In this document: piece after piece, positions 7,101 through 44,617 of the stretch
Layout of the letters: each line of letters opens with the position of its first letter
Numbering within the stretch: the stretch's first letter is position 1
NCBI GenBank assembly: GCA_030753015.1
Contig: JASMDC010000011.1
Location: 1-64,000 of the forward strand
Origin: Candidatus Undinarchaeales archaeon
Lineage (GTDB): Archaea; SpSt-1190; JASMDC01
DNA length: 64,000 nucleotides
Reading direction: 5' to 3'
The notes under the pieces: model-generated
Databases searched by the model: none
What the model was told of the DNA's origin: nothing
Seen by the model: only the letters and a program-made list of their open reading frames with translations
Program-made: the position numbers and the translations under genes

Positions 7101-7594
7101 GACATCCCTTGCTTACGGTTCTCGATGGCGGTGGCCATGGCGCCGTTGCCCCGGTTGTACCCGAACAGGATGAGGGTGAGCACCTCGTCCTCGTTCGCGC
7201 CCATGTTCATCGCCTTGTCCAGGCTCCCCTTGAGGTGCTTCATACCAAGGTCGATACCGAACCGGACGTCGGTCTTGCACCTGCAGTAGTCGGGCGACCC
7301 CTTGTCCACCCGGCATGGGTGGTCGACCTGCATGATACCGCCGCAGTTGACCTGGGCCCTGCAGGACGATTCCCTGATGACCTGGGCCATGAGCATCACC
7401 GGATCGATGATCTTGTCGACGCCGTATTTGCCCATGAACTCGAGGAAGAGATCCTTGTACGGAGCGCAGGACCGCAAGCTGCTAGAGCCGAGCCGGGAGA
7501 GGTCGGCGCCCTCGCAGGCGGCGATCCCGGTGGCCGTCACGAGTAGGAGCGGGATGAGCAGGAGCACGAAACGGCGGACCGCGACCACGGTCAT
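1133..7594 (-). CDS. Giant secreted multi-domain peptidoglycan hydrolase (lytic transglycosylase/lysozyme-like + M23 peptidase + TSP3-like Ca repeats + NlpC/P60 + Cys-rich and Ig-like regions)
   Basis: Signal peptide; SLT motifs RESS/GIMQ/GYNRG; M23 HHGLD..YGH..HLH; DxDGDG repeats; NlpC/P60 DCS..HTG..LH; ATGA overlap with upstream gene. Confidence 0.9.
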   Translation of the reverse strand: MTVVAVRRFVLLLIPLLLVTATGIAACEGADLSRLGSSSLRSCAPYKDLFLEFMGKYGVDKIIDPVMLMAQVIRESSCRAQVNCGGIMQVDHPCRVDKGSPDYCRCKTDVRFGIDLGMKHLKGSLDKAMNMGANEDEVLTLILFGYNRGNGAMATAIENRKQGMSLADAMMKSCIKYYGPGTKWNDVDYYCKKTGTVYPEKIYSTFRKACKELGGTPADVPALSPAAGTVNCPDYLTNSQWIWPLKGRITSRFGPRPKPCADCSSYHHGLDISQTQGTPIVAAGAGKVKYAGWATGYGNVVYIDHGKNVQTRYGHSSKLLVSTGQDISQGQKIALVGSTGYSTGPHLHFEIRVNDKAIDPLPELESGSTGSVDPRNDIDGDGICNNFDDDMDGDSIPNAQDQDIDGDGTPNTLDGDNDNDGLPDNQEVEDCRYLYDCDGDSIPDSTDADPRVTNLDLDGDCIPNAQDDDWDNDGAPNGEDDTNANPCAGCQVMAGTKGGGDKTRVEMCVTGPCDTTKCMDHLEASMPSGAQSAPAMATTATGAILPGTLDLETIPYLGTKCEPDSTQRASVTVDPIDAGAHASVSLDTSLLTCPDRTYDNINEYRADLIETLGKMKQFYMALKEHLVVLEDALRKQEKQCEKAITQFTGEYTSCDELNLDPEGVASPEFTPAVCGEMAVKACPAELAACLKDARPADALKKAKTCSLCIVLPCCPGTGCAAGNDPADTTKCGKDDIDPVEGECRYTDKDKCEEGCPAGLRTVPSSGCTLTPKEEGDGGDLGVTSCEVSGQSLTVSCCHEKDGDVCKDGKRFTDTDACSAVVVSKEKREHALVFPRTLEECYQKAFDVKDLCTVEGSAVLGDGRTHSPGHVADAIGRAVRFLEHYDKVYPSLEAKMRELAQAEEENLRQGAATTRKDTIDILLGIEQSSNELATNGETTLAQFQKLAIDIVGLAGSNELKNDVSGTHNQEAGDLNSYQIKATEGWKGAELCMFDGTVDTSVFDDECVLTGPATLQEITAVANDLSCDGCAKENKQVGRCLQEPKPVTVRESNLDVWPDAPLMSLVSMGKLDPQAIFLDSQKCFDYRGPPSSSPGTGPGGASEQCSLVCGSMGAPQGHCHPELGVCVCLVEGLQQITDATCDERVDSALAAKLAACCEKMVGETAGVETFKGATRTDSDKSDAVCGTAREYLGWNYEMSTKVPYCSGGKCYIDCSSLTQQVFKKHGVNIPRTASAQYEWCRKQGKLVDEPVRGDAIYFKNTYKQGISHTGIWLGDGKYLHAAGRKYGVITSTLTADRKAKHWAGACRLIGDVSTTGTSSKVTFGLCKDGSGDLCCTGRGLEAEKRITAETCDVTCEDMCSVKHTAGSEDAMRCVAKCAGNTCLGRPDKTECEGGLCCKGQCVPDASSCDGETCEEEDRACSGGWCCDLLCVPDATACTTDTCAEAADGTECEGGLCCEHRCVPGALACSIECAGKVQSDACEGVEGLCCDTTCIPGAQSCGSPDEQCDIHEGIPCAAGAEEGMCCDKNCVPGASACSGSPACDDKADGQECDGGVCCRGVCVANADGCSDEDRCQTICFDRFPDDVNAARLCTVRCNEINVTCESNCLENLEGMDCVSSCGDGLDNDGDGDIDEDMVNTIDDDGDGRLDEDGSGHDIPQSAIHCMAQCVPAEATGPSARIISCIKACRALAPSLRLSVSFADDVHAVLPGEIVDITARVENSGVFPFEGSIDIEVDKLFTCTCPETGGCSCMKTAVFVSDENFQLEARDNLTLTSDPLEADRQGNIRFLRPKASVSTYAGDKVVSEIGELATMLDVGAVRDGSFILLPENTTAREAYPGDTVAGVVVVEGEGQLTVTRTITHDGNMLDGTKSESTATTGSEGTTELHTRTYTIPPSMDGATFGLHAEVINSTDHVLFRDVLHAEAGDNPCTGSTVTHDCLAHDNPKIYADARLKVRAFDLTLTYAFFIDREDRPVSRSGEPLDVRAAIELQNWHPRPFSGEVELSVVTEGGEVLHAANHSVELAPYITADILVPQESASLVSDPVNVPADTTTLIRIVARTDDGTVWLDMIVPSDLFPESRLVVMKQTEFGDIDIDASIVYGECKLKVTAKRCLDTCELHVDKDVCTIEPKECGCIPTVERIVPQAELPGSEVTG

Positions 7595-10500: not shown

Positions 10501-13500
10501 GGTGCAGAAGTGCTCGTCGTCGTCGTAATCGGCCACGGGGAACCAGGCCGCCTGGAGGCAGTAGCCGTCCTCCTCGAGCCCGCACCAGCTCTCCCCCGCG
10601 TCGTCACCGCAGCACGTGTCGATGTCGTCGTCGACGCTCCTGAACCACCAGCCGTTGGGAGTCATGCACCGGCACGCGGGCTGGTCGAAGTCGGGCTCAT
10701 CGGTCCGCTGGTTCTCGTTGCAGTACCAATTCTGTGAGCCGTAGGACGGGGACGAGCACCAGGTGTCGGTCTCCGTGTCGCCACCGCAGCAGCGGTTCTC
10801 CCCGGACGGGTTGTCGGTCGTGAAGAGGTTCTGTCCGGCCTTGCAGTCGCAGTACTCCTTCTTGTCGTCAGCGTTGTCCTCGCGCACGGCGTTGTCGCAG
10901 TACCACGCACCATCGCCGGGATTAGGGCTCTCGCACCAGCTCTCTCCGGCCTCCTCGTTCACGCCACCGCAGCACTTGAACGGTCCCCCGTTCTTGTCCG
11001 AGTAGAGGTCTGGGCCCGCCTCGCAGTCGCAGTAGTCGCGCTTCAGGTCGGCATCGTCCTTGCGGACGTTGGTGTCGCAGTACCATTCGCCGCCACCGGG
11101 TACGGGATTCGAGCACCATGTGTCCACCTCGCCGACATCACCACCGCAGCACCTGTCGTCGCCTGCGTTGTCGACCGTGTAGAGGTCCTCGCCGGCCTCG
11201 CACTCGCAGTACTCGAGCTTGCTATCGGCATCGTCCTTGCGCACAGCATTGTCGCAGTACCATGCACCGTCACCGATCCTCGTGCTCTCGCACCATGTCT
11301 CGCCGGGTTCCTCGTTGACGCCACCGCAGCACTTATCGGCGCCGCTGTTCTTGGTGGAGTAGAGCTCCTCCCCGGCCTCGCAGTCGCAGTAAGCCTGCTT
11401 CACGTCGGCATCGTCCACGCGCACGGCGCCGTCACAGTACCACTGGCCGTCGCTGGCGGTGGGGCTCTCGCACCACGTCTCGGCCGCCTCCTCGTTGACG
11501 CCGCCGCAGCACCGGTTCGAGCCACTGTTCTTGGTGGTGTAGAGGCTGGGACCGGCCTCGCAGTCGCAGTAGGCCAGCTTGCTATCGGCATCGTCCACAC
11601 GCACAGCGCCGTCGCAGTACCAGGCGCCGTCGCCGACGGTAGGGCTCTCGCACCACGTCTCTCCAGGTTCCTCGTTGGTGCCCCCGCAGCACATGCTCGC
11701 ACCGCTGTTCTTGGTGGTGTAGAGGCGTAGCCCCGCCTCGCAGTCGCAGTAGGCCTGCTTCGTATCGGCGTCGTCCACGCGTACGGCGCCGTCACAGTAC
11801 CAGTCACCGTCACCGGGCGTTGGGCTCTCGCACCAGACCTCGCCGGGCTCCTCGTTGACGCCACCGCAGCACTTGTTGGCGCCGCTGTTCTTTGCCGTGA
11901 AGAGACTGGTGCCTGCCTCGCAGTCGCAGTACTCCTGCTTGTAGTCGGCGTCGTCCATGCGCACAGCACCGTCGCAGTACCAGGTGCCGGCACCGCTAGT
12001 GGGATTCTCGCACCACGTCTCCCCGGCCTCCTCGTTGGTGCCGCCGCAGCACTTCTTCGAGCCCGCGTTGTTCGTGGTGTAGAGGTTGGCGCCCGCCTCG
12101 CAGTCGCAGTACTCCTGCTTGACGTCGGCGTCGTCCTTGCGTGTAGCACCGTCGCAGTACCAGTCACCGCCACCGGCGGTAGGGCTCTCGCACCACGTCT
12201 CGGCCGCCTCCTCGTTGACACCGCCGCAGCATTTGTTGGCGCCCGCGTTCTTTGCCGTGAAGAGGTTGGTACCTGCCTCGCAGTCACAGTACGCCTGCTT
12301 GTAGTCGGCGTCGTCCTGGCGCACGGCGCCGTCGCAGTACCAGGTGCCGCTGCCCGCCGTCGGGCTCTCGCACCAGGTCTCTCCGGCCTCCTCTGCGTTC
12401 CCGCCGCAGCATCGTTTATTGCCGCTGTTCTTTGTGGTGTAGAGGTTGGACCCGGCCTCGCAGTCGCAGGCTGGCTGGGTCGTGTCGGCGTCGGGCTCGC
12501 GGGCGCCGTCGTCGCAGTACCAGGTACCGGCACCGGAGGTGGCGCTCTGACAGAAATCCTCCCCCGCGTCATCGCAGCACGTGGACCGGGCCCAGTGGTC
12601 GGCTCCCAGGATGCAGGTACAGGCCTTCTTCGAATCGTCACCGTCCACCGTCTTGGACCCGGTCAGGCAGTACCAAGACGAGGTGGCTGCGCAGAAGTCG
12701 TCGGTGGCTCCGCCATCGTCACCGCAGCATATAGTCTCCTGGGACGACCATAGCTTGGAACCGCAGGTCTGGCAGCCGTAGGACGACTGGTCGTAGTCGG
12801 TGATGTAGACACCGGAATCGCAGTACTTGTTGGTCGGCCCGCAGTAGGTGTCGGTCGACCCCCCGTCATCGCCGCAGCACTTGTTGCTGAGCCATACCTT
12901 GCTGCCACAGGTGACGCACCCGTACTCGGACTCGTCGGGATCGTTGTGGAGGGTACCCGACTCGCAGTACTTCCCGGACGCATCGCAGTACGTGTCGGTG
13001 GCCCCACCATCGTCACCGCAGCACTTGCTTTTTAGCCAGCTCTTGGACGCACAGGTCTCGCACCCGTACTTCTTCTTGTCCGGATCGGTGTACTTGACAC
13101 CGTCGAGGCAGAAGTTCGTGGAGCCTGCGCAGTAGTCGTCGGACGCACCGTCGTCCCCGCAGCACTTGTTGTTGAGCCATACCTTGCTCGCGCATGTCTG
13201 ACACCCGTACTTCTTCTTGTCCGGATCGGTGTACCAGCTGCCGTCGAAGCAGTAGCTCGTTCCCGAGCAGTAGTCGTCATTGGAGCCGTCGTCGCCGCAG
13301 CATTTGTTGGCCTTCCATGAGCCGCCCTTGCACACACAGCTGTTGGCGTCGTTGTCGCCGTTGCTGTTGGCGCACTTCGAGCACCAGTTCGCGTTCCCGA
13401 CGGCACAGTTGTAGCCCCCACCGCCGCATTTCAGGCCGGTGCACTTCTTCTCGCCGTCGCACTTCTTGCAGGCACCGCACTCTGAGTTCGAGCAGCAGTT

Positions 13501-13689
13501 GCCCCCGGCGTACCAGTTACCGCCGCAGCAGATGCCACCGGTCTTTGCCTGACAAGCATCGCTGACACAGTCCTGGCACGCGTTGCAGACCGGATCGCAA
13601 GCGGCGATGCCGAGATCGGGCAGGACCACCAGGGCGAGGAGGGCAGTAAGGACAAGGCAGATGCCCCACTTCCCGTCCGGTATTTCCAC
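7591..13689 (-). CDS. Giant Cys-rich repeat surface protein with C-terminal membrane anchor
   Basis: Signal peptide; about 20 six-Cys repeats; helical region; Ig-like segments; C-terminal APG + TM helix + RK tail. Confidence 0.85.
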   Translation of the reverse strand: MEIPDGKWGICLVLTALLALVVLPDLGIAACDPVCNACQDCVSDACQAKTGGICCGGNWYAGGNCCSNSECGACKKCDGEKKCTGLKCGGGGYNCAVGNANWCSKCANSNGDNDANSCVCKGGSWKANKCCGDDGSNDDYCSGTSYCFDGSWYTDPDKKKYGCQTCASKVWLNNKCCGDDGASDDYCAGSTNFCLDGVKYTDPDKKKYGCETCASKSWLKSKCCGDDGGATDTYCDASGKYCESGTLHNDPDESEYGCVTCGSKVWLSNKCCGDDGGSTDTYCGPTNKYCDSGVYITDYDQSSYGCQTCGSKLWSSQETICCGDDGGATDDFCAATSSWYCLTGSKTVDGDDSKKACTCILGADHWARSTCCDDAGEDFCQSATSGAGTWYCDDGAREPDADTTQPACDCEAGSNLYTTKNSGNKRCCGGNAEEAGETWCESPTAGSGTWYCDGAVRQDDADYKQAYCDCEAGTNLFTAKNAGANKCCGGVNEEAAETWCESPTAGGGDWYCDGATRKDDADVKQEYCDCEAGANLYTTNNAGSKKCCGGTNEEAGETWCENPTSGAGTWYCDGAVRMDDADYKQEYCDCEAGTSLFTAKNSGANKCCGGVNEEPGEVWCESPTPGDGDWYCDGAVRVDDADTKQAYCDCEAGLRLYTTKNSGASMCCGGTNEEPGETWCESPTVGDGAWYCDGAVRVDDADSKLAYCDCEAGPSLYTTKNSGSNRCCGGVNEEAAETWCESPTASDGQWYCDGAVRVDDADVKQAYCDCEAGEELYSTKNSGADKCCGGVNEEPGETWCESTRIGDGAWYCDNAVRKDDADSKLEYCECEAGEDLYTVDNAGDDRCCGGDVGEVDTWCSNPVPGGGEWYCDTNVRKDDADLKRDYCDCEAGPDLYSDKNGGPFKCCGGVNEEAGESWCESPNPGDGAWYCDNAVREDNADDKKEYCDCKAGQNLFTTDNPSGENRCCGGDTETDTWCSSPSYGSQNWYCNENQRTDEPDFDQPACRCMTPNGWWFRSVDDDIDTCCGDDAGESWCGLEEDGYCLQAAWFPVADYDDDEHFCTACAGNIWESLYDLSDEECCGDDPGESWCGDRGYCLEGVWHPVADPDDDAHYCEQCVEEEWREGTCCGDDVDEKWCGTAGYCYHGDYHPAIGLEVFARETPVYAEEACATDPLRDPFNQGSCAESKTYEVFPGASLDINIFTCSLLGCHCTYPMFDLFDTYQGLTYLKGRYQDLPQELGYATHIRLNATGERVRISATTDQCFYSSVTLSYPTTMCDVCDRTDGCFDHIDKCQVRQTQCHFCLFHPENCTDELIGGLEGCLYTDASNNNRCLKCARHLQTCQRCLDDEECREHFDLCIDNTQICDGLLNTDMITFQECFFGGLTACRETLMALAGRAALLCEFADDDLAKVVFMCNVPLGLGYRFEDVNNRFAARRYADILPLTKKKELTRMLGPAINEMVANAAGETAVLAAQLQDRFPKLAQALNATIALNASIKDTATELDFNMEEDLSRALDYGVVALYRLTTTQEYARTAGGMDTALFMLERIQDRARSLDNLRAIINNRTIEQFFTKAQLTDLPSDDLMTTVTALRVLVGMVNTVFEVDETKVAQDRLAEQEGRLRDAILATSVSGVAVDPAFMDEVRSKVAQVAAGWVTITITERESYRLEVEREDVSKTALALKRRTDILTLNLTEDNLIAVTVPALVEISVPDGIEYYWSLFTIRLYNAKGQAMEDVVVPYRVKKGVTHSIEELHFDRKVKVLDAVSLVAWEVPLLEVDDVLELKFVAKKGLCRTVADCKEGEVCDNIHPLGVCNTQCTACGTVCDSGDPAYEVCNGNGACVAESSRLDKGQACQCNEICASNLCTMGVCCAKGEFADPINMVCSNKLNLLLISETQFEVILGDSYVIAVHIANPSGVAKTFTVRASGVLADNVMIFRPTFVLQPWEYRQLLLQVTGLISGKRTLVIDVEEKDGELRDSGAIDVVVRSPAQSMGVEMRTAPGLTVAHLALLGLLAATAIARKPIYAPRGRV
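10240..13330 (-). repeat. Intragenic tandem repeat array (about 11 units of 177-180 bp flanked by shorter approx 140-165 bp units)
   Basis: gtcgcagtacca recurs at 180-bp spacing about 10.7-12.5 kb; protein unit CCGG.NEE..E.WC.SP..G.G.WYCD.A.R.DDAD.K..YCDCEAG. Confidence 0.9.
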
Positions 13690-14234: not shown

Positions 14235-17200
14235 CTATCCCGTGATGATCATGTCCACGGGCGGTGCCTCGGTCTTTGCGTCCGGACGGTAGTAGTCGTA
14301 CACGATGGATCGCGGGGCTGTGGCCTTCACCGGGTAGAGCGCTACGAGCCTGTACGTGAACTTCAGCCCCTCCTTGTCCAGGTTCTGGATGTAGAGGATC
14401 GCCTGCCGCGGCTTCACGGAGTACCTAGAGATGACACCCCGCTGTTTGAGATTCTCGAGGTCCTCTGCCACGACGGCGAACCCGGGCGGGATGCCCATAT
14501 CGGCGACGATGAAGGGCGCCACGCCGGCACCGTTGTTCCATACCTTGACGTCGGCGGTCACCATGTCATTGGTGGCAAGCTCGGTCCTGTCGTACTTGAG
14601 CGAGAACCCGACCATGTCCTGGGCCGAGCGCTCGGCGAGCACCGTGGGGTGCGACCATGGCAGATAGTACGAGCCCACGACCTGGTAGTGGAGCAGCCCT
14701 CCACCCTCGGTGACGAGCTCTACGGTGTGCGCTCCGGGTGCCAGTTCGTCGCCCAGGGAGACGAGGTGCATGATGTCGACGTTCCCCTTCGTGACACGGA
14801 GGGTGCGGACCTCGGCGTCGTCGACCTTAACGGTGATGGTGGCGTCAGCGCTCTCCTTGGCCTTGAGGGACGAGCCCATCAGCGCCTTGAGGCTGAGCAC
14901 CGTAGAGTAGGTGGAGCCCCACTTGCCGAAGCTGTCCTTCTCCGAGGTTATGAACGCCAGCGCCTTGGTGACCAGCATGGGGGAGTGTTGTGCCTCGATG
15001 AGGGCGAGCGCGATCATGGCGCTGTCCTCGAGGCTCTTGGCCTTTCCGCCCGAGCCCATGAACCCGCGTGGCGCGTCCATGTCCTTGGGGGCCCACCACG
15101 CCATGTCGTCCTTGACGGTGGCCCTGTCGACGGCCTGGACGAGGAGCTGGTTCGTGAGCGAGTCGGAGACGTCGTACTCCACCATGGCGCTGAGGCAAAG
15201 GGCGATGGTGTACATGTCGGCCGTGGCCGGATCGATGTTCTTGCGGAGGTAGCTCAGCGCACGGGAGAACGCCCTATGGTCGCGGTCGAGGCCCGACTCG
15301 AGCAGGCTCCATACAAGGTAGCACGTGGTGCCCGTCATCGACTTCTGCCGCTTGCTCATTTCGAACATGGCTCCCTGCGGCTCCCACGAGCCGTCGGGCT
15401 TCTGCTCGGAGAGCAGGTACCTCTGGGTCCGCTCGATGACGGCCGGGTCCACCTCGTACACCTTCGCCATGTCGCTGAACTGCTGTAGTCCCATGGCGGT
15501 GAGCAGGAGCTTGGCCGGCGGATTACCGAACCAGTCGAACCCGCCGGGCGTCGATGTCTCGAAGCTCAGCAAGCGCTGGTAGCCCACACCGATGAAGTTC
15601 TCGGCCTTCAGCTCCAGCTCCGGATTCGCCTGCTTGGTCTCGCGCAGGTACTGGAGCACCATGATGTTGGGATAGGTCGTGGACGAGGTCTGCTCGAAGC
15701 ACCCGGTAGGCATCTTGAGCATCCCGTCGAGCCCCTCGACGATCTGGCTCATCACGCCGGGATGGATCTTGAGGATGGCCTTGTAGCTGTCGGGGATCGC
15801 GTCTGCCGGGACGGTGAGCGGCACCGTCACGGTCCCCTCCTTCAGACGTTCGGACGTGCTCGTGCGGAACTCACGGCCGTTGGGGAGGATCTCCACCTCA
15901 CGGCGCACAGCGTCGCTCGAACCGGTTCCGTAGGCGAACACGGTGAGGTTGTGGCGGCCGATGGTGTCCGCGCGCAGAGACAGGTGAGCCGACGTGATAT
16001 CGTTGGCACCGAGCGTGACGATGATCTCGCGCTTCGAAGGATCGCTCATCGGAAGCAGCGTGTCCTGGAGCGTGAACCACGGATCATCGGGATCCTCCTC
16101 CACCACCAGCCGCACATCCTGCTCGGCGTCGAGGTAGTTGTACACCGTCAGCGGCACGGTCACTGTATCGTTCTGTGTGAGGAACACGGGGAAGTCGATG
16201 TCCACGAAGAAGTCCTGGAACACGAGGATGCCCGCCTCGGTCGAGCCCAGTTCGCCGCTCATGGCGTTCGCCATGGCGCCCACCTTCCAGGTGGTGATGG
16301 AATCTGCCAGAGGGACGTAGATATCGGCCTTCCCCTGCTCGTCGGTGATGACCTGGGGATTGACGTAGAGCGTCTCCGGGAAGAACGCACGGACGCGCGG
16401 GCCCTCCTCCTCGCTGCCCCCGCCACCTTCCTCGTCCAAAAACTCCACTTCCATATCAGCCTTACCCATCGAGAACGACGTCATGATCTGCTTCTCCGGC
16501 CTGCTCTTGATGTCGTTGAGGATGCGCTCGCGCATGGTGTCGGACACCTCGTCGTTCATCCCCATGTTGACGCTCCGCATGAGGGGTGTCGCCAACGCGA
16601 AGAAGCCGATGATGAGGAGGGGCAGTGCGATGCCGAACGCGGAGATCAGCATGGGCAGTGCGAGCTTTGTCCGCTGGCGCATGTGCCGGGCAGCGCCCCC
16701 GCAGAACGGGAGCATCAGCAAGCTCGAGGCAAGGAGGAAGACCGCGCCGACGCTTCCTTCATCGAGCGCACCGCTCCGAGAGTATGAGAAGATGAAGGGC
16801 ATGGCGATGATAACCATCATGAAGACGAGAAGGGCGAAGAGATGGTTCTTGATGCCGGCGAGCACGGTGTCCGTCACCGAGGCGTTGTACAGGATGAAGA
16901 GCGATCTGAGCATGAACGCTCCAAGGACCGCGACGCAGGCGACGATCACGATAGGGCTGCGGACCATGGTCCCGGCCGCCATGACACCGAGCAAGGCGAT
17001 TGGGAAGAGGATACCGGCGATGAAGCGGGCATAGTACCCTGCCGCACGGACGTGCTGGAGCCGCCAGAGGGTGACGCTCAGGAGGAGGAAGGTGAGGAGA
17101 AACACGCCTTTCGGTGCGTCCTGTTCACTATAGCTGAGGTCGTCGATGCCATCGTCCACCCACTCGAGCATGTAGATGAACGCGACCAGAGCGCCGAACA

Positions 17201-19373
17201 CCAGTCCGACTAGGACAATGCCCTTGACGAGGTCCTTGATGGCGGCCCACCACCCCTCCTCTGTACCTCGTACGAAGGCAGCGACGCTCGCGAGGCCCGC
17301 CAGAAGGCATACAAGAGAGAACAGCAGGGCCTGGTTCCGGAAGAACGAGCGCTTCGCCTCCTCCACTTGGGCCTCCTTCTCCTCACGTGTGGATACCTGG
17401 ATGCCGAACGGGCCCAACTTTGCCTCAGGCGCGTTGCGCGCCAGGAACACCTGCTCGGCGATGTGAATGTCCTCCTCCACCTTGACGGTGTCAGGTGCCG
17501 GTGCCGGCCGCTCGGGTGCCATGGGGTTGAACCCGTACACCGTGAACCGTGGTCGTGCAAGCTCGCGTCCCAGGTAGAACGCCATGCGCTCGAACCCGGC
17601 CTTGGCCTCCTCGAGAGCGAACACCGACTCGTCCACGACGGTGAGCCCGACGGCCGCGGGGACGCCTTCACCCTTCCGTTCGGTAGCGATGCTGAGCTGG
17701 GCTAGTTCTCCCGGTTTGTAGCTCTCCTGGTCCGTCCCGATGGACACCGCGAGCTGGTCTGCGGGGAGCACCACGATGCGTCGCGTGGCCCGCTCGACGG
17801 CTGTGCTGCGAGTGGTGTGATAGGCGTGCACGATGAGCTGGCCCGCCATCGAGGCGTCGATGTCGAACACCGCGTCTCCCTGTCCGCTCTTGAGGGTGAG
17901 GGAGCGGGCGTCCACGGTCTGTCCGTCCTTGACCATGTCGACGTAGGCGGCAGGAGCGGCCCCCGAGTGGAGCACGGTGACCGTCGCCGTATCGCCCACC
18001 CGGTACACACCCCTGTCCGTCCGGACGAGGATGGTGCTCCGCTCGAGCTCGTAGTCGCGCCGTTCGCGTCCCTCGCGATAGGACCACTTCTTACTGCCCG
18101 TGCGAGCTTCCGCATCCTTCGCCTTGAGGATGAGCTGCGGATTGTTGTTCTGTGGCCTGAACTCGAACGAACCGAGGCCGAGGCTCCCGGTCTTCACGGT
18201 CGTCGAGAAGTCGACGTCACCGCTCACTTCCACCGTCGCGGGGACCGGTACACCGTCGGGTGTCGAGGTGGCCACGTACATCACGTTGAGGAAGTTGAAG
18301 TTCAAATGCCCGCTCTCGGGGATGAGGTCGATTACGATATCGGATGTGGACACGGGGAACTGGCGCACGATCTGCTCGACATGGTCGCCCCGGTCGGTCA
18401 CCGAGACGTTGAGAAAGAGGAGAGCACCGCCCTTCTCCAGCTCGGAGCCGTGGAACGCCGCGGGCAGGGTGTAGGTGAACTTGACCTGGCCCATCTCGTC
18501 CGTGGTGCCCTTCCAAGAGTGGAGCTCGCGCTCACCGACGTCCACGGTATAGAACACGACCTCGGCCTCGCTCTTGGAAACGGGCTTGCCGAAGAAGTAC
18601 CGGGCGGTGATGGTCCCCTCGAGCTTGTCGTTCGGCTTGTAGAAGGAACGGTCGGTCTGCAGGGCGACCCTGAACTTGGGAAGGACGTACCGCTCGACCC
18701 TGATGCTCTTCTGGCTCTGGACGCCGTTGACGATGACGGTCACGCGGTACCTGCCGAGGATGAGCTCGGGGGCCAGCGCGATGCTCACTGACGCGATCCC
18801 GTACTCGCTCGTGGTGATGACCTTGCGGAACACCTTGTTGCCTTTGGGATCCTCCAGCTCGAAGGTGGCGTTCGTGGCGGCAAGGGGCTTGGCGTCGATG
18901 GAGGAGAGAGCAAGAGCGCGTACGTGCACCAGTTGCCCGGGCTGGTAGAGGGGCTTGTCCGTGGACACTAGCACCTTGGCCTTGCGCTTCACGGTCAGGA
19001 TCGCCTCGTGCGTATCGGTCCCCGACTCGATGATGAGGGTGTAGGTCCCCTCCTCCTCGGGCGCGACGAACTTGGGCGCAGAGCTCCCTTCCGTGTTCGT
19101 TTTTCCCTCGAACATGAGCTTCTTCTCGCCGGGCCGGTCCTTGGGTGTGATGTAGACCTTCACGGCCTCGTCGGGACGTGGCTTGTCGGTACCGACGTGG
19201 CGGGCGACCACCCTGATCGCCTGGGGCGCACCAGGCTGCACGACCGCCTGGCCGAGGACGATGGTGTCGTACTGGTCGATGCGCTCCTCCATGGTGGAGG
19301 CGCGGTACGCCATGAACTGGTTCGCACCCAAGAAGAGGATAACGAGGAATACAGCAAGAATATACCTTCCCAT
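14235..19373 (-). CDS. Alpha-2-macroglobulin / thioester-containing protein with internal multi-pass TM insertion
   Basis: TDKPLYQPG, EYVLP-like RYVLPKF, VVDESV, RAFFPETL, DSITTW, thioester GCFEQ (15690-15704), QKPDGSW, C-terminal YDYY. Confidence 0.92.
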   Translation of the reverse strand: MGRYILAVFLVILFLGANQFMAYRASTMEERIDQYDTIVLGQAVVQPGAPQAIRVVARHVGTDKPRPDEAVKVYITPKDRPGEKKLMFEGKTNTEGSSAPKFVAPEEEGTYTLIIESGTDTHEAILTVKRKAKVLVSTDKPLYQPGQLVHVRALALSSIDAKPLAATNATFELEDPKGNKVFRKVITTSEYGIASVSIALAPELILGRYRVTVIVNGVQSQKSIRVERYVLPKFRVALQTDRSFYKPNDKLEGTITARYFFGKPVSKSEAEVVFYTVDVGERELHSWKGTTDEMGQVKFTYTLPAAFHGSELEKGGALLFLNVSVTDRGDHVEQIVRQFPVSTSDIVIDLIPESGHLNFNFLNVMYVATSTPDGVPVPATVEVSGDVDFSTTVKTGSLGLGSFEFRPQNNNPQLILKAKDAEARTGSKKWSYREGRERRDYELERSTILVRTDRGVYRVGDTATVTVLHSGAAPAAYVDMVKDGQTVDARSLTLKSGQGDAVFDIDASMAGQLIVHAYHTTRSTAVERATRRIVVLPADQLAVSIGTDQESYKPGELAQLSIATERKGEGVPAAVGLTVVDESVFALEEAKAGFERMAFYLGRELARPRFTVYGFNPMAPERPAPAPDTVKVEEDIHIAEQVFLARNAPEAKLGPFGIQVSTREEKEAQVEEAKRSFFRNQALLFSLVCLLAGLASVAAFVRGTEEGWWAAIKDLVKGIVLVGLVFGALVAFIYMLEWVDDGIDDLSYSEQDAPKGVFLLTFLLLSVTLWRLQHVRAAGYYARFIAGILFPIALLGVMAAGTMVRSPIVIVACVAVLGAFMLRSLFILYNASVTDTVLAGIKNHLFALLVFMMVIIAMPFIFSYSRSGALDEGSVGAVFLLASSLLMLPFCGGAARHMRQRTKLALPMLISAFGIALPLLIIGFFALATPLMRSVNMGMNDEVSDTMRERILNDIKSRPEKQIMTSFSMGKADMEVEFLDEEGGGGSEEEGPRVRAFFPETLYVNPQVITDEQGKADIYVPLADSITTWKVGAMANAMSGELGSTEAGILVFQDFFVDIDFPVFLTQNDTVTVPLTVYNYLDAEQDVRLVVEEDPDDPWFTLQDTLLPMSDPSKREIIVTLGANDITSAHLSLRADTIGRHNLTVFAYGTGSSDAVRREVEILPNGREFRTSTSERLKEGTVTVPLTVPADAIPDSYKAILKIHPGVMSQIVEGLDGMLKMPTGCFEQTSSTTYPNIMVLQYLRETKQANPELELKAENFIGVGYQRLLSFETSTPGGFDWFGNPPAKLLLTAMGLQQFSDMAKVYEVDPAVIERTQRYLLSEQKPDGSWEPQGAMFEMSKRQKSMTGTTCYLVWSLLESGLDRDHRAFSRALSYLRKNIDPATADMYTIALCLSAMVEYDVSDSLTNQLLVQAVDRATVKDDMAWWAPKDMDAPRGFMGSGGKAKSLEDSAMIALALIEAQHSPMLVTKALAFITSEKDSFGKWGSTYSTVLSLKALMGSSLKAKESADATITVKVDDAEVRTLRVTKGNVDIMHLVSLGDELAPGAHTVELVTEGGGLLHYQVVGSYYLPWSHPTVLAERSAQDMVGFSLKYDRTELATNDMVTADVKVWNNGAGVAPFIVADMGIPPGFAVVAEDLENLKQRGVISRYSVKPRQAILYIQNLDKEGLKFTYRLVALYPVKATAPRSIVYDYYRPDAKTEAPPVDMIITG

Positions 19374-19496: not shown

Positions 19497-20312
19497 GTGC
19501 TCTACGAGATCGGTGCATATCTTACCGATATCTACGAGAACCTCGATCAGCCAGGACCTGAGCCGAACACAGGTCTGAAAGGACTTCTTCGACGGGATCC
19601 AAAGACCAATCCGCTCGACGACCTCAGCGCACTCAGGCCAGCCCTAGACAATGGCTATGAGAAGGCCATCCTCAGTCAGGCCGACGCGGTCCGCGAACAG
19701 CTCGAGGCATACGCGGTCGAGGCCGGGTACGACGGGCTCCTGAAGGTCCGGTACGAGCTCGCCGAGAAGGAGCGTGGACCTGGTAAGGACGGCGTCCTCA
19801 TGGCGACCTACGGTATCGGCAGCGCCTCGATGGACCTGCCCTTTCGTGTGCGATCAGGAGAGGACGGCGGCATCGCCGCTGTGCCGAGCTTCACGTACGT
19901 CTTCGATGACCAGGCCCGTGTCGCGTTCCACGATCCGCGGGGTCCGATGGAGTTCTTCCAATGGGGCCTGTACACGATCGTCGGCGAAGAGCATACGAAA
20001 ACACCAGAAGGGCTCATCGGCGCCGGTAAGGACGTGCGCCTCATCGGTCCCGAAGCGACAGCGTGGGCCGAGCGAAAGGGCCACAAGCTCACACCCGAGA
20101 TGGTCACGGGCGTATACGACCGGGATATCGATGTGCTGGTCATCGGTAATGGTATCAACAACATGGTAGAGGTACCCGACGAGGTCCGGGAAGCGGTAGA
20201 ATCCCACGGTCTCGAGCTCATCGTCGAGCGGAGCCAGGACGCATGCCTCACCTACAACGAGATGATGCGCGAGGGGCGCAAGGCCGCGCTGCTGGTCCAC
20301 GGGACCTGCTGA
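19497..20312 (+). CDS. Unknown 'MLYEIG' domain fused to Mth938-like (DUF498/AAMDC) domain
   Basis: C-terminal GHKL..DVLVIGNG..ACLTYN..ALLVHGTC is typical of Mth938/AAMDC; N-terminal half is paralogous to 21288..21746. Confidence 0.75.
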   Translation: MLYEIGAYLTDIYENLDQPGPEPNTGLKGLLRRDPKTNPLDDLSALRPALDNGYEKAILSQADAVREQLEAYAVEAGYDGLLKVRYELAEKERGPGKDGVLMATYGIGSASMDLPFRVRSGEDGGIAAVPSFTYVFDDQARVAFHDPRGPMEFFQWGLYTIVGEEHTKTPEGLIGAGKDVRLIGPEATAWAERKGHKLTPEMVTGVYDRDIDVLVIGNGINNMVEVPDEVREAVESHGLELIVERSQDACLTYNEMMREGRKAALLVHGTC

Positions 20313-20486
20313 GCCGTGTTCACTTGGATCATGTCTTTTCTGAAAAGCATTGGTGCTGTGTCACCTTTGGCTAAAGACCGAGGTTTACTGAACGATGATT
20401 CAGTAATATACCGCCCCCTGGGTACGAATCTCGTAACTCTTGAGCGAAACCTATATTAACGCCTTGCCCTGCCGAAAAATGTCCTC

Positions 20487-21227
20487 ATGCTCGGAGAGCT
20501 CGACCTCGATTGTGCGGACTATGGCACCTCGGGCGCCGCAGAGGGCTATTCCACCTCGGACGACCTCTCGGGGAAGGCCATCGCTTATGGCGCACTCCTC
20601 GCCGGGGCCATCGCCGGAGTGGTCTACGTCGGCGGCCGCCAGAAGTACGAGAACGAGAGCGAGTTCAACGTCGACGACGGCAGGTTCCGAGTCGAGGAGC
20701 GCCTCCTCTCCCTGCGAAAGCAGTACGACATCCTCAACGAGGAAGGGCATCGCGTCGCCTATATCCAGAAGCCCTGGCTCAGCTGGGGCGATGATTACAA
20801 CGTTTTCGATGGCGACGGGGACCTCGTTGCCAGGATCGACGGCAAGGTGCTCGCCTGGGGCCATGACTTCGATGTTTACGACGCACAAGGCTCCCTCATC
20901 GCCAAGATCGACGGCAAGGTCATGTCCTGGGGCTACGACAGCAACGTCCGTGATCCCGCAGGCGGCACCATAGCCGAGCTGGACAACAAGCTGTTGCGCA
21001 TCAACAACCACCTGGACGTGAGCCAGGGCGGCCGCGATCTGGCTGACATCGACTCCCGCGTCATCTCGTGGACTGACACCTACGACGTACAGTTCCAGGG
21101 TGTCGTGGACGCTGCCACCAAGAAGCTCGTCCTGTACGCGACGGCGACCTTCGACGGTATCAAGGACGCCGCCATGGAGTCCGACAACGACTCGTCCAGC
21201 TCGTCCTCGAGCTCGTCTTCCGAGTAG
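20487..21227 (+). CDS. Membrane-anchored LURP-one/scramblase-like protein with conserved acidic leader
   Basis: Leader + hydrophobic segment; approx 24-aa repeats (Y/F)xVxDxxGxxxAxIDGK..SW; C-terminal helix and poly-Ser. Confidence 0.7.
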   Translation: MLGELDLDCADYGTSGAAEGYSTSDDLSGKAIAYGALLAGAIAGVVYVGGRQKYENESEFNVDDGRFRVEERLLSLRKQYDILNEEGHRVAYIQKPWLSWGDDYNVFDGDGDLVARIDGKVLAWGHDFDVYDAQGSLIAKIDGKVMSWGYDSNVRDPAGGTIAELDNKLLRINNHLDVSQGGRDLADIDSRVISWTDTYDVQFQGVVDAATKKLVLYATATFDGIKDAAMESDNDSSSSSSSSSSE

Positions 21228-21287: not shown

Positions 21288-21746
21288 ATGTTGTACGAGA
21301 TCGGCGGATATTTAACCACAATTTATGATAATGCTGACCAGCTCGAGACCCTCGAGAATCCCGAGCACTTCCAGGAACCCGACGCGGTACTGGAACGCAT
21401 CCAGGGATTCAAGATCCTCGAGCCCGTCCAGAACAATATCTATCAGGAATGCATCCTTCACCAGGCACATGGTGTCATCGAGAAGCTCGAAGGGTACTTC
21501 GAGGACAGCGAGGATATCGGCGAGTTCAGGACACTCAAGTACGAGAAGTCCGGCACCAGCGAGAATCCCTGGGAGGACGGCGTCCTCAAGGTAACGTACG
21601 ATCTCAACGTGGAGATAGATCCTGTCTTTGGTTTCGAGGTCTCGGACGCTACCGTCGAGGTCCCCTTCCGGCTCCTTCCGGGAGAGAAGGGTGGCATCGA
21701 GCCTGTTGCCGGGTACGAGCTGGCACCACCGATCGAAGGCGAGTAG
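21288..21746 (+). CDS. Hypothetical acidic protein, stand-alone 'MLYEIG' domain
   Basis: MLYEIGGYLTTIYDNADQ..ILHQAHGVIE..DGVLKVTY..VPFRL matches the N-half of 19497 protein. Confidence 0.75.
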   Translation: MLYEIGGYLTTIYDNADQLETLENPEHFQEPDAVLERIQGFKILEPVQNNIYQECILHQAHGVIEKLEGYFEDSEDIGEFRTLKYEKSGTSENPWEDGVLKVTYDLNVEIDPVFGFEVSDATVEVPFRLLPGEKGGIEPVAGYELAPPIEGE

Positions 21747-43032: not shown

Positions 43033-43153
43033 ATGCTGAACATTCCAAACAATACCGTATAAATGATCCGGGTCACGTGAGGACAATCCGGATTCCGATT
43101 CCGCTCGTCGTAGGAACAACCTTTATTAACCCTGCCACGGTCTGACACGTTTC

Positions 43154-43885
43154 ATGGACGCTCTTGACCTCGAATCGGAAGGATATGCTGCTACCGAGTC
43201 GGCCGATGGTTACCGACAGACCAACGACCTCTCATCCTACAGTGTCGCTAGCGGTGTCGCCATGGCGGGCCTCATCATCGGGCTCGGCGTGCTCGCAGAA
43301 GAAGCGGAAGCGCGCGACTGGCGCAATTACGACGTTGGCCAGGACGACAACGGGAACCTCCCCAACCAGCCTCAAGAGCCGCATTACCAGCCTCAGCCCG
43401 AGACCAATCATGTTCAAGAGCACGTCCACCAGCAGCCGAACATCAACTACACTCAGGACTCTGACGGCGACGGTCTATCCGACTACAGGGAGGTCCACAC
43501 TTATGGTACCAATCCCCGCATGTTCGACACCGATCGTGACGGTATCAACGACGGGAGCGAGGTCAACTTCTACAGGAGCAATCCGCTCTCGAACGACACG
43601 GACGGCGACGGCCTCTGGGACGGGAAGGAGGTCTACCATGGGACGAACCTCACGGACTGGGACACGGACAACGATGGATGGTCCGATGGTGACGAGGTGC
43701 GCTACGGCACCAATCCACGCAACTCCCGATCGCAACCCCGTGGAAACAACAGACCCCACTGGCGGGACCGCAATCGCGGCTGGCGCGATCACAACGGACG
43801 ATACCGCCAACCGCACTATCCGCATCACAACGGCGGGGGACGGCTCATAATCAGGCTACCGCGGCTGAACTTCACCATCAGATGA
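43154..43885 (+). CDS. Secreted TSP3-like (DxDGDG) Ca-binding repeat protein with conserved acidic leader
   Basis: Leader + h-region + AEA cleavage-like site; four D.DGDG..D..EV..GTNP repeats; Arg/His-rich tail. Confidence 0.8.
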   Translation: MDALDLESEGYAATESADGYRQTNDLSSYSVASGVAMAGLIIGLGVLAEEAEARDWRNYDVGQDDNGNLPNQPQEPHYQPQPETNHVQEHVHQQPNINYTQDSDGDGLSDYREVHTYGTNPRMFDTDRDGINDGSEVNFYRSNPLSNDTDGDGLWDGKEVYHGTNLTDWDTDNDGWSDGDEVRYGTNPRNSRSQPRGNNRPHWRDRNRGWRDHNGRYRQPHYPHHNGGGRLIIRLPRLNFTIR

Positions 43886-43954
43886 GCTGATTTTCACTCA
43901 GCGGTGACAACAAAAGGAAAACTTTATTAACAGACCGGGGGCCGGAAATCCCTC

Positions 43955-44617
43955 ATGTATGGTCTTGACCTAGAAACCGATGGTATCGCGACCGCCGAGA
44001 AAACGGACGCCTACCATAAGACTGACGATCTCTCATCCTACGGTATGGCCGGCACGGCTATCGCTGCCGGTGCCATCGTGGGCGTGTTCGCTCTTGCAGA
44101 GACGGCCGAGGCCCAGGAGGGCTGGCGTGACAAGAGCGGCTCGTCCAACGGCAGCTGGCGTAACTACGATGTCAACGGTGGCGGTAACAACTACCAGGGC
44201 GGTAGTGATGTAGGCAGTAATGTCGGCAGTGGTATCGACACCGACGGTGACGGTCTGAGCGACCATGCTGAGCTCAACACCTACGGTACTAATCCGCGCC
44301 TCATCGACACCGACCGTGACGGGATCAATGACGGGACAGAAGTGAAATTCTACGGTAGCAACCCACGGGACATCGATACCGATTGGGACGGTCTCGCAGA
44401 TGGTAAGGAGGTCTACCACGGTACGAACCTCAAACACTGGGACTCGGACGGTGATGGCTGGTCCGATGGCGACGAGGTGCACCGCGGCACCAACCCACGC
44501 AATTTCAGGTCGCACCCCGGCCCGCGATACCACCACCGCTGGAACGGCCACCGTGGTCATCACAGTGGTGTGCGGATCCGTATCGGCCTGCCCCAGCTCA
44601 ACATTTCCATCAGGTAG
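43955..44617 (+). CDS. Paralogous TSP3-like repeat protein with conserved acidic leader
   Basis: Tandem paralog of 43154..43885 with the same architecture. Confidence 0.8.
   Translation: MYGLDLETDGIATAEKTDAYHKTDDLSSYGMAGTAIAAGAIVGVFALAETAEAQEGWRDKSGSSNGSWRNYDVNGGGNNYQGGSDVGSNVGSGIDTDGDGLSDHAELNTYGTNPRLIDTDRDGINDGTEVKFYGSNPRDIDTDWDGLADGKEVYHGTNLKHWDSDGDGWSDGDEVHRGTNPRNFRSHPGPRYHHRWNGHRGHHSGVRIRIGLPQLNISIR

Follow-up and report, generated by a model that had tools for sequence, protein, structure and literature searches.

Three genes in the window, the 64-kb stretch of DNA that was analyzed, encode proteins that begin with much the same residues and then continue into cargo of different kinds. 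The locus raises the question of what kind of element this shared N-terminus is, how many proteins of the archaeon carry it and what it may do for them.

Three window proteins share an N-terminal leader

The three open reading frames lie on the forward strand at positions 20487-21227 (protein 1, 246 aa), 43154-43885 (protein 2, 243 aa) and 43955-44617 (protein 3, 220 aa), and in each of them the ATG is the earliest start codon downstream of an in-frame stop. Their first ~45 residues align with a one-residue offset, as an earlier note on this DNA had observed for the N-termini, and the invariant positions listed in that note hold (L5, D6, L7, Y21, D26, L27, S28, A33, A39, G40, I42 and G44 in the numbering of protein 1). 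The resemblance of the three N-termini is far beyond chance level. What had been described as a 40-aa acidic leader is indeed a shared N-terminus, but its acidic conserved part spans ~28 residues and the remainder is a hydrophobic segment.

In protein 1 the acidic conserved N-region comprises residues 1-30 (20487..20576; MLGELDLDCADYGTSGAAEGYSTSDDLSGK) and the Gly/Ala-rich hydrophobic segment residues 31-50 (20577..20636). The cargo (20637..21227) consists of a LOR/scramblase (tubby-like) domain, identified by Pfam match, and a C-terminal poly-Ser tail; the match values were 6.4e-8 and 32.9 bits for LOR (cut-off 24.5) and 2.9e-6 and 27.2 bits for Scramblase (cut-off 25.4). The leader of protein 2 (43154..43312) is divided into an acidic part (residues 1-29), a hydrophobic part (residues 30-48) and a c-region (residues 49-53, EEAEA), with a candidate signal-peptidase I site after A53, and is followed by a low-complexity linker, bacterial TSP3 calcium-binding repeats and an Arg/His-rich tail that ends in RLIIRLPRLNFTIR (43313..43885). 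Protein 3 is a tandem paralogue of protein 2 and has the same plan, with an acidic N-region, a hydrophobic segment and the c-region ETAEA (43955..44113), a candidate cleavage site after A53, and a cargo of TSP3 repeats with a basic tail that ends in VRIRIGLPQLNISIR (44114..44617). The TSP3_bac matches of proteins 2 and 3 had E-values of 5.8e-24 and 1.7e-20, so that the difference in cargo seen earlier, LOR/Scramblase in the first protein versus TSP3_bac in the other two, is real. Contigs identical to parts of both TSP3 genes were found in four metatranscriptome runs from two studies, which attests to their presence in RNA libraries only and gives no transcript start, strand or level.

A sharply bounded family of leader proteins

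An HMM built from the three window leaders alone, as the earlier note had proposed, was run against 53,673 six-frame ORFs of the genome, and every match sat directly behind a Met. The HMM was then iterated and converged on 28 proteins of this genome with domain E-values of 2e-17 to 1e-9, the next match having a value of 0.23, and it identified 33 leader proteins in a sister species. The motif was at the extreme N-terminus in 28/28 matches of the first genome and in 33 of the sister species. The expectation of further matches with diverse cargo was therefore borne out in both species, and the family that includes the window proteins is larger than the earlier note had it and is sharply bounded. 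The module marks about 1% of this archaeon's proteins, and these are often tandem paralogues. An acidic N-terminus is also present in the C41 peptidases, which were considered as a remote branch of the family and rejected: the family HMM misses them, and an HMM of their own retrieved those four tandem genes only.

Architecture and constraint of the leader

The consensus of the 61 proteins reads M-Y-D-hydrophobic-D-L-E-T-x-G-Y..A..A-D-G-Y..T-D-D-L-S-x-(K/R), with two G-Y motifs within the acidic stretch, and then passes into a glycine-rich uncharged segment of ~21 residues (median 21). Among the 61 aligned leaders the D was kept in all, L6 in 60 and the Y in 52, and the third position after D-L, shortly ahead of the segment, was K/R in 21. 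The distance from the Met to the invariant D-L was 24-32 residues in the 43 of the 61 proteins listed. The first 11 consensus positions hold a single basic residue among the 61 sequences (none in 60/61), and in this genome almost every one of the 28 proteins has 5-10 Asp/Glu in the N-region ahead of the segment, together with 0-3 Lys/Arg. The acidity was also considered as a mere effect of a halophilic proteome, and this was rejected, as the proteome has a median pI of 5.5, with 13.5% Asp+Glu and 10.6% Lys+Arg. A hydrophobic segment follows in nearly all members; these segments are Gly/Ala-rich and modestly hydrophobic (KD 1.3-2.2) and contain G-x-G and G-x-x-x-G patterns, and G is found in one column in 50/61 and in another in 42/61.

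Across 24 reciprocal-best pairs from the two species, the acidic part has an identity of 0.82, the hydrophobic part one of 0.87 and the cargo one of 0.83, and the constraint on the leader equals that on the cargo. Distant transglutaminase orthologues (57% and 46% identical) retain M1, Y4, D25 and L26. Paralogous leaders outside close paralogue pairs share 18-51% identity and still keep the invariant positions. One member of 65/67 aa, conserved in both species, has only ~10 residues beyond the segment, and the leader therefore cannot be solely a disposable export signal. Structure prediction added little: AlphaFold2 rendered the leader as one long helix of low confidence (pLDDT 58-66 in the acidic part), which is uninformative; an oligomer prediction for three copies of the 58-residue leader scored 0.02, a value that counts neither for nor against self-association; and residues 1-58 gave no usable feature match in the ESM Atlas, the structural matches being generic single helices.

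Cargo diversity and distribution

The 61 leader proteins fall into 20 cargo groups that are unrelated by BLAST and include TSP3 repeats, FG-GAP, transglutaminase-like proteases, LOR/scramblase and many small membrane proteins. Where cargo can be recognised it is of extracellular type, with TSP3_bac, FG-GAP_3 (4e-45) and transglutaminase/BTLCP-like domains, and exported proteins are the usual bearers of TSP3, FG-GAP and BTLCP-like domains. No model in Pfam or NCBIfam covers the leader in the 28 + 33 proteins, and on the same proteins Pfam returned cargo domains only, whether at E up to 0.1, 0.01 or 0.001.

The earlier proposal that the leader is lineage-specific was supported, as 2 of the 17 genomes from the phylum have it, and a search of 1.84e9 representative proteins gave 35 genuine N-terminal clusters. 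A profile scan of genome contigs with a narrower leader alignment gave six pattern matches, none of which was confirmed, and a scan of viral contigs gave 122, again with none confirmed. A record-level search of the literature on signal peptides of Undinarchaeota, and on archaeal signal peptides with an acidic n-region, found no such leader. The transglutaminase cargo had four matches, and the two that were inspected both bear the leader; the LOR cargo had two matches, both from the same clade; and a metagenome scan gave one match, a transglutaminase-like protein that is bacterial, cytoplasmic and unrelated. The question behind these searches was whether distant homologues of the cargo bear canonical signals, and they showed the cargo families to be lineage-restricted as well. 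The host is an uncultured marine archaeon of a deep-branching lineage, and its genome is 3.8 Mb in size, those of other members of the phylum being 0.6-1.2 Mb.

Upstream elements

Each of the three window genes is preceded on the forward strand by a TATA/BRE-like box: AACCTATATTAAC at 20448..20460, which ends 26 nt before the ATG of protein 1, AACCTTTATTAAC at 43118..43130 and AAACTTTATTAAC at 43919..43931, which end 23 nt before the ATGs of proteins 2 and 3, respectively. The similarity of these boxes had been pointed out before, and it exceeds expectation, since CTWTATTAAC occurs three times in the window (at 20451, 43121 and 43922 only) versus 0 expected from 100 shuffles. The 26-nt spacing in front of protein 1 implies a leaderless or nearly leaderless mRNA. 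Genome-wide there are 11 occurrences of CTWTATTAAC, four of them at leader members (three or four members share the variant), and upstream of the remaining leader genes there are different TATA variants, at -14 to -50, unless the gene is part of an operon. The box is an ordinary archaeal TATA element and not a family-wide element. Recent recombination of a promoter-plus-leader cassette was also considered and rejected, as the 5' DNA alignment contains a TATA box and codon-level similarity only.

Sorting machinery of the genome

The genome encodes SecY, TatC, an Oxa1-like insertase, archaeal signal peptidase I, four A24 peptidases and five to six T2SSE ATPases, and an EMC3/Oxa1-like gene adjoins secY. 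Canonical basic Sec, lipoprotein and class III-like signals are all present, and ordinary basic signals such as MRRALAVLAVLALLAGCTG coexist with the leaders. A partner peptidase or transporter co-distributed with the leader, which the earlier note had proposed to look for, did not emerge from the neighborhood: 150 of the 158 crude ORFs within 3.5 kb of leader genes were scanned (of the other eight, three had already been scanned as window proteins and five were short or overlapping), and these were mostly housekeeping genes with no recurrent candidate. Among the 150 there was no C39 peptidase, and the sole ABC transporter match was one ABC_tran ATPase. The A24 peptidase and T2SSE ATPase genes are on contigs other than those of the leader genes. 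An M50 protease 1 kb from one leader member was considered as a partner and taken as coincidence.

Comparison with known signals

The leaders lack the short net-positive n-region of Sec class I signals. Tat signals resemble them in that the n-region has a conserved motif and, in archaea, is often long; a lipobox may also be part of a Tat signal. It is the RR motif (S/T-R-R-x-F-L-K) that defines Tat, however, and the leaders are acidic although the genome has TatC; RR is absent from the aligned leaders except for DLDRRHLTF in the orthologue pair C41_39252 / L120. Class III signals are likewise leaders that stand ahead of a hydrophobic helix at the N-terminus of archaeal surface proteins of various kinds, and this genome has four A24 peptidases, but a class III leader is short and basic and ends in a [KR]-[GA] site, cut by an A24 peptidase, before a helix of ~20 residues, whereas those described here are acidic, extend over 24-32 residues and have no fixed G/A. 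Double-glycine leaders, which measure 15-25 residues, end in GG/GA, lack a membrane segment and are encoded beside a C39-ABC transporter, also differ, as a segment follows in nearly all members here and no C39-ABC transporter was found in the 150 neighbors. Proteins of the Pf3 coat type, inserted by YidC/Oxa1, share a short acidic N-tail nearly free of basic residues before one membrane segment; they differ in having a basic cytoplasmic C flank and no large cargo, the leader proteins having an acidic C flank (-2.2) and cargo that looks extracellular.

Outside the archaeal N-terminal signals, the logic by which the leader was found in silico is that of PGF-CTERM/archaeosortase and PEP-CTERM/exosortase, which are short, lineage-restricted tripartite signals shared by numerous unrelated proteins within a genome. 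They sit at the C-terminus, and each occurs together with an identified sorting enzyme, whereas the leader is N-terminal and no partner enzyme was found in its gene neighborhoods. The YSIRK-G/S motif of Gram-positive bacteria is similar in being a conserved n-region motif on a Sec-type signal with unrelated surface cargo, where it sets the place of secretion and not whether secretion occurs. Septal secretion is reported to require the YSIRK motif (PMC5962339). The motif differs in being basic, short, bacterial and always on cleaved signals, the leader being acidic, archaeal, ~28 residues long and probably mostly retained. The ESPR is a conserved N-terminal extension of ~25 residues ahead of a normal signal peptide in autotransporters and two-partner secretion proteins, and it too stands in front of the signal on a defined class of exported proteins. 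It has charged and hydrophobic sub-regions of its own, is bacterial, is restricted to very large passengers and has no sequence similarity to the leader. Pfam presumably includes models for both YSIRK and ESPR, and the leader proteins match neither. By analogy, and given a recognition factor, the leader would play a part similar to that of the n-region motifs conserved in YSIRK, ESPR or Tat signals.

Processing and topology

The suggestion that leaders are cleaved at AEA found partial support in the sequences. The TSP3 subfamily has a conserved AxA, a candidate site with small residues at -3 and -1, behind the hydrophobic segment, with variation of the middle residue (AEA, AEA, ANA, AMA, AYA). 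Most members, however, have the look of uncleaved anchors or two-pass membrane proteins, so that cleavage does not appear to be general. Most non-TSP3 members have no obvious AxA site, and the median length of the uncharged segment, 21 residues, is that of an anchor and unlike that of a typical cleaved h-region. In C77_949 and in C74_14786, an FG-GAP protein, the hydrophobic segment ends directly in the lipobox LSGC (pattern [LVI][ASTVI][GAS]C), and the sister-species orthologue of C77_949 keeps it as LAGC; lipoboxes were found in these two cargo families only (FG-GAP and DUF4347-like) and are absent elsewhere.

Charge gives a mixed picture of orientation. Within six residues of the first segment there are on average 0.90 Lys/Arg on its N side versus 0.67 on its C side (p = 0.02). 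The 15-residue flanks have net charges of -2.4 (N side) and -2.2 (C side), and the more positive flank is C in 29, N in 22 and neither in 10 of the 61 proteins, so that charge rules leave the topology unsettled. A second hydrophobic segment is present in eight members of this genome, in four of which it has two or three K/R after it and none before, and this basic tail suggests an internal C-tail and an external loop. The opposite orientation is favored in the C84 transglutaminase family by a KKRK that flanks the C-terminal hydrophobic region on the cargo side.

Proposed role of the leader and alternative explanations

On balance, the leader is probably a signal anchor or signal peptide in N-in orientation whose conserved acidic extension stays in the cytoplasm, its topology, its cleavage and the existence of a recognition factor being inferred. 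The module has two parts, a strongly acidic, conserved stretch of ~28 residues placed obligatorily at the very N-terminus and a glycine-rich uncharged segment of ~21 residues, often with one Lys or Arg ahead of it. The hydrophobic segment would enter the membrane by the general Sec/SRP route with the N-terminus inside, so that the acidic stretch would be kept in the cytoplasm and the cargo displayed outside; this orientation is proposed because of the lipoboxes, the AxA sites, the basic C-tails and the extracellular-type cargo. The whole leader would be removed at the AxA site in TSP3 proteins and at the lipobox cysteine in FG-GAP and DUF4347-like proteins, and in most cargo families it would be retained as a membrane anchor. 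The acidic stretch may serve as a recognition handle for a lineage-specific factor that acts in targeting, envelope placement or timing.

An orientation opposite to this one, in which the acidic N-tail would be sent outward by an Oxa1/YidC-like insertase and the membrane potential, as in Pf3, and the cargo would stay cytoplasmic and tethered to the membrane, is unlikely. The exposed acidic peptide would bind cations or the surface layer. Such a topology would suit the single basic residue in the first 11 consensus positions of 61 sequences, the 5-10 Asp/Glu of the N-region, the C flank that is the more positive one in 29/61, the cargo-side KKRK of the C84 transglutaminases and the EMC3/Oxa1-like gene beside secY. 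According to two papers, charges in the YidC groove and in the N-terminal region govern N-out insertion (PMC8920935, PMC8548208). It is opposed by the lipoboxes and AxA sites at the cargo end of the segment, by the basic C-terminal tails in 4/8 two-segment members, which would place both termini inside, by the enrichment of K/R directly ahead of the segment and by the general knowledge that TSP3, FG-GAP and BTLCP-like domains belong to exported proteins. The same lipobox and AxA sites, being behind the segment and not ahead of it, also speak against a long acidic variant of the class III (prepilin-like) signal, in which one of the A24 peptidases would cut after the D-L-S motif, ahead of the hydrophobic segment, and the helix thus made N-terminal would assemble into or beside type IV filament-like structures. 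We regard this variant as improbable. Four A24 peptidase and five to six T2SSE ATPase genes are available, but no leader gene shares a contig with any of them; Gly/Ala is often right before the core, sometimes with a K ahead (AKG-FIAVGL, KAG-VVLTAL), but no Gly/Ala is invariant at a fixed position; and many members are small and pilin-like (89-136 aa), but the segments are Gly/Ala-rich with KD of only 1.3-2.2. Archaeal class III signals do occur on diverse cargo, which counts in favor of the variant, whereas the class III-like N-termini of this genome are short and basic (RSRRG-VTPVIAIILLL), not acidic and 24-32 residues long.

The leader could instead act on the mature proteins, the acidic stretch and a glycine-zipper helix together gathering ~30 different envelope proteins, by contact among themselves or through a scaffold, into one membrane complex or domain. 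This assembly or docking role, to which we give a low probability, would account for leaders being conserved between species to the same degree as cargo, for the leader-only proteins of 65 and 67 aa kept in both species, for the G-x-G and G-x-x-x-G patterns (G columns 50/61 and 42/61), for the frequent tandem paralogue pairs and for a spacing of roughly 3-4 residues that we read in the hydrophobic positions of the acidic part. It is at odds with the cleavage motifs in three cargo families, which imply that the leader is removed there, with the conserved Gly ahead of both Tyr, which argues against one continuous helix, and with the AlphaFold2 result of a low-confidence single helix only. It is very improbable that the leader is without special function, a 5' gene segment spread by duplication and cargo replacement that provides a generic membrane anchor. 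The many tandem paralogues and the TATA-box variant shared by three or four members (4/11 of the genome-wide CTWTATTAAC) are what such a history would leave, but leaders only 18-51% identical outside close pairs have the same invariant positions, their 5' DNA similarity is no greater than the protein motif requires, and the motif is kept in orthologues at 46-57% identity. A generic anchor would also have no need for the exclusion of basic residues from the first 11 positions in 60/61 leaders. The present data suggest that purifying selection acts on the acidic positions more strongly than membrane insertion alone would require.

Implications for archaeal envelope biogenesis

The earlier note had inferred a lineage-specific targeting or export signal with a dedicated factor. 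Its lineage specificity, the diversity of its cargo and its lack of a matching domain model held up; a factor was not found in the gene neighborhoods. In its strongest form this idea would add the leader to Sec, Tat and class III as a fourth kind of N-terminal sorting signal in archaea, with an acidic n-region read by its own machinery, a possibility that we raise tentatively. If it were true, the machinery might consist of a receptor in the cytoplasm, a peptidase specific to the leader or an insertase, and ~30 envelope proteins could be placed or processed together. N-terminal sorting signals are thought to depend on a basic n-region, and a conserved, strongly acidic, strictly N-terminal motif on ~1% of a proteome would be an exception to that rule. 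The leader family defines the probable surface proteome of this uncultured marine archaeon, and a protein that reads the leader, if it exists, would be a new component of archaeal envelope biogenesis.

A common leader on unlike cargo

Three ORFs on the forward strand of the window, at 20487-21227 (246 aa), 43154-43885 (243 aa) and 43955-44617 (220 aa), have N-termini whose first ~45 residues could be aligned with a one-residue offset, and in each the first start codon behind the in-frame stop is an ATG. The positions L5, D6, L7, Y21, D26, L27, S28, A33, A39, G40, I42 and G44 (20487-protein numbering) are invariant, which bears out the observation of an earlier note that the three N-termini align. 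As that note had also claimed, the leader precedes unlike cargo: Pfam identified LOR (6.4e-8) and Scramblase (2.9e-6), each above its cut-off, in the 20487 protein versus bacterial TSP3 repeats (5.8e-24 and 1.7e-20) in the other two, which are tandem paralogues. Its description of a 40-residue acidic leader was right as to the leader but not the length, as the acidic part comprises only ~28 residues and the remainder is a membrane-type segment.

An HMM built from the three window leaders alone was searched against 53,673 six-frame ORFs of the genome, and gave 19 further matches under the HMMER inclusion threshold, each directly behind a Met. Iteration settled at 28 proteins spread over 18 contigs (domain E-values 2e-17 to 1e-9), and since the best match outside these had an E-value of only 0.23, the edge of the family is sharp. 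The sister species G001, of the same genus, has 33 leader proteins, and a profile from all 61 leaders indicated a possible 34th. The scan of genome and relatives suggested beforehand thus returned many members with diverse cargo.

In a Pfam scan of the 28 proteins, cargo was assigned to TSP3_bac (two members), LOR/Scramblase (one), Transglut_core (four above cut-off and one below, two also matching the periplasmic BTLCP/LapG-like protease family), FG-GAP_3 (one, 4e-45), PhageMin_Tail-like (four in tandem, 474-561 aa, one above cut-off) and DUF4347 (one, weak). The other 14 (65-233 aa) had no match at E up to 0.01, and the kinds of cargo in G001 were the same. When the parts behind residue 58 were clustered by BLASTP (E 1e-3) for the 59 proteins with at least 25 such residues, they fell into 20 unrelated groups, in the biggest of which TSP3 and transglutaminase proteins are linked by common TSP3-like repeats. 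The two additional proteins, 65 and 67 aa long, are a conserved leader-only pair.

The window TSP3 proteins also have an Arg/His-rich C-terminal tail (43700-43885 and 44480-44617) and end in a conserved strand-like motif, RLIIRLPRLNFTIR and VRIRIGLPQLNISIR, which may be a second sorting or anchoring signal; relatives elsewhere end in IRIRIPGFDFRIR, FIIRVPGIRVTIH and PLFRIRF.

Anatomy and distribution of the leader

The consensus drawn from alignments of 28 and of 61 leaders begins (counts out of 61) with M (42), Y (34), D/E (43), L/I/M/V (52), D/E (60), L (60), E/D (54), T/S (51), any residue, G (38) and Y (40). After a short Ala/Ser-rich stretch follow D/E (48), G (36), Y (52), any two residues and T/A/S (55), and it ends with D/E/N (55), D (61), L (55, otherwise M or I), S/D/N (48), a small residue and K/R (21). 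The D of the D-L motif is therefore invariant (61/61), and the first 11 positions contain a single basic residue in all 61 sequences together. Measured in 43 of the 61 proteins, the distance from the initiator Met to D-L is 24-32 residues, and therefore the motif is tied to the N-terminus. The uncharged Gly/Ala-rich segment behind the acidic part has a median of 21 residues (range 11-29) and two glycines that are well conserved (50 and 42 sequences out of 61).

No model covered the leader in Pfam (leader proteins of both genomes) or in NCBIfam (24 of the 28 proteins), and a full-text literature search turned up no publication on a signal of this kind. Among known signals the YSIRK, ESPR and Tat n-region motifs are its nearest functional counterparts, but by sequence and defining features the acidic leader is a member of none of them. 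The earlier interpretation is thus supported in part: the leader is a lineage-specific signal at the N-terminus, borne by diverse cargo and matching none of the described signals. Its recognition factor, topology and cleavage are parts that we infer.

When whole genomes were searched, 2 of 31 relatives had the leader, as did 2 of 17 genomes in the class and 2 of 17 in the phylum; one additional weak match in the phylum (5.7e-4) was over the hydrophobic part alone. Among 1.84 billion representative proteins, a profile search gave 36 matches at E up to 1e-3, of which 35 begin no further in than residue 17, on proteins of short to medium length, and the 36th, a repeat protein, was regarded as spurious. 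The 15 matches from a word-indexed search, made among 5.8 billion proteins, were all unnamed or labelled 'hypothetical protein', and pattern scans of 185,579 species genomes and of viral contigs yielded no confirmed leader. Two distant transglutaminase orthologues (P0025 and P0048, 57% and 46% identity) have a diverged leader in which M1, Y4, D25 and L26 are kept, and based on these the leader is older than the genus.

Upstream box and expression

The box reported before each of the three genes was confirmed: CTWTATTAAC occurs three times in the window (0 expected), solely before the leader genes, and ends 23-26 nt upstream of the ATG. This spacing agrees with a TATA/BRE element of the archaeal kind on mRNAs that are leaderless or nearly so. 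The box is not family-wide, however. The genome has 11 copies, one of them next to a fourth leader gene (contig C23) in inverted orientation, and the remaining leader genes either carry a different TATA variant, 14-50 nt upstream, or lie inside operons. Given this, its position, and the fact that the 5' DNA of leader genes has nothing in common except box and motif codons, the box is an ordinary promoter element, at most a variant common to a few members. Six RNA-library contigs (164-261 nt, from four runs, at most three samples and two studies) match parts of both TSP3 genes without differences; they show that the sequence is present in RNA libraries, and give neither transcript start nor level.

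Neighbouring genes and other large proteins

The LOR leader gene is flanked by paralogues at 19497-20312 (+) and 21288-21746 (+), with 34% identity over ~150 aa and a common N-terminus, MLYEIG(A/G)YLT.IY.N.DQ; only the former runs on into DUF498 (2.9e-16), and the two are the only members in the genome. Also in the window are an alpha-2-macroglobulin-like protein of 1712 aa (14235-19373, -) with MG2, bait, thioester (TED) and receptor-binding domains, and a 1399-aa protein (35509-39708, +), probably another large surface protein, in which a Laminin_G_3 domain is combined with several PQQ-like beta-propeller repeats. Giant proteins of 1366-2037 aa are encoded at 7591-13689 (-) of the window, C45:360-6473 and C74:957-5057. 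Two have Cys-rich N-terminal regions, two end in a PGF-CTERM-resembling motif (RTAPG, hydrophobic segment, basic tail), and three different leader genes have paralogues nearby.

A leader-bearing transglutaminase gene is followed immediately downstream by four genes in tandem (L005:691-5123; C41:25634-31622, -), three of them clostripain-like (Peptidase_C11) and one encoding a subtilase S8. These have a different acidic N-terminus with a membrane segment, MMY(V/I)E.E...EGLT.KQVA.YAA.GLGL, an HMM of which found no genes beyond these four. Two families without a Pfam match recur beside leader genes: one of ~100 aa (L016:5520-5834, +; L004:4221-4514, -) with three to four genomic members, two within 1 kb of a leader gene, and one of ~260 aa (L007:1378-2157, -; L017:6221-8822, -) with five members at three loci, two of which are near leader genes. 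The fifth of the latter (C76:2494) has a CTATATTAAC box upstream, as before leader genes. An IS605 OrfB/TnpB-like gene (L004:2804-3982, -, contig C37; OrfB_IS605 and Cas12f1-like TNB domains) lies 1.1 kb from leader gene C37_5122.

Organism and export machinery

The genome, whose contig C20 supplies the window (C20:1-64000), has 3.85 Mb in 117 contigs at 60% G+C, is about 99% complete and differs in size from the remaining 15 of the phylum (0.6-1.2 Mb). Its closest SecY match is 94% identical and labelled 'Candidatus Undinarchaeota archaeon', with every other match at 55% or below. Either the placement is wrong, or the organism belongs to a DPANN-type phylum but has a large genome and is probably free-living. 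Metagenomes of marine, seawater and hydrothermal-vent origin, from about ten studies, contain its DNA. Acidity extends to cargo, one member having 21 K/R versus 109 D/E. The proteome as a whole is no more than mildly acidic (median pI 5.5, Asp+Glu 13.5%, Lys+Arg 10.6% in 3,354 crudely called ORFs), and a general halophile trait was thereby ruled out as the source. SecY, TatC and archaeal signal peptidase I are encoded, and an Oxa1/EMC3-like insertase gene adjoins secY. Four A24 (prepilin-type) peptidase genes (C42:4158, C117:15844, C28:8738 and C28:44092) and five to six T2SSE ATPase genes make an unusually rich type IV filament-like set for one archaeal genome.

Topology, processing and constraint

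We consider it likely that the N-terminus of leader proteins is inside and the cargo outside. In favour of this orientation, a lipobox lies exactly at the segment end in two cargo families (LSGC in the FG-GAP protein and in C77_949, whose G001 orthologue has LAGC), and the TSP3 family has an AxA site behind the segment with a varying middle residue (AEA, AEA, ANA, AMA, AYA). Four of the eight members of the genome with a second hydrophobic segment have two to three K/R in the next 10 residues and none before, indicating a C-tail inside and a loop outside. Further support comes from K/R within six residues of the first segment (0.90 on the N side versus 0.67, p = 0.02) and from the extracellular-type cargo. 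The rival, in which the acidic tail is translocated outward, is favoured by the equal net charge of the 15-residue flanks (-2.4 and -2.2), by KKRK at the cargo side of the C-terminal hydrophobic region in one transglutaminase family, and by the resemblance of an acidic tail nearly without basic residues to N-out YidC-type insertase substrates (PMC8920935, PMC8548208).

A further rival is that one of the four A24 peptidases cleaves the leader in a class III-like manner. The genome also has ordinary basic N-termini of Sec, lipoprotein and class III-like kinds, so that the acidic leader is a further class beside these and not the organism's general style. Faster evolution than in the mature protein would be expected of an ordinary cleaved signal peptide, whereas the acidic leader does not show it: in 24 reciprocal-best pairs of the two genomes, the acidic part had an identity of 0.82, the segment 0.87 and the cargo 0.83 (acidic part versus cargo, Wilcoxon p = 0.71). 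Together with the conserved leader-only proteins, this argues that the leader sequence itself may be read by something and would stay on the protein in many members. Two other rivals are that the leader is an assembly module and that it reflects neutral inheritance.

Our preferred reading is that the leader is a signal anchor or signal peptide, inserted N-in, whose conserved acidic extension would lie in the cytoplasm and serve as the recognition handle for a putative factor. In a few cargo families the extension would be removed by cleavage together with the segment, and in most it would be kept on the protein.
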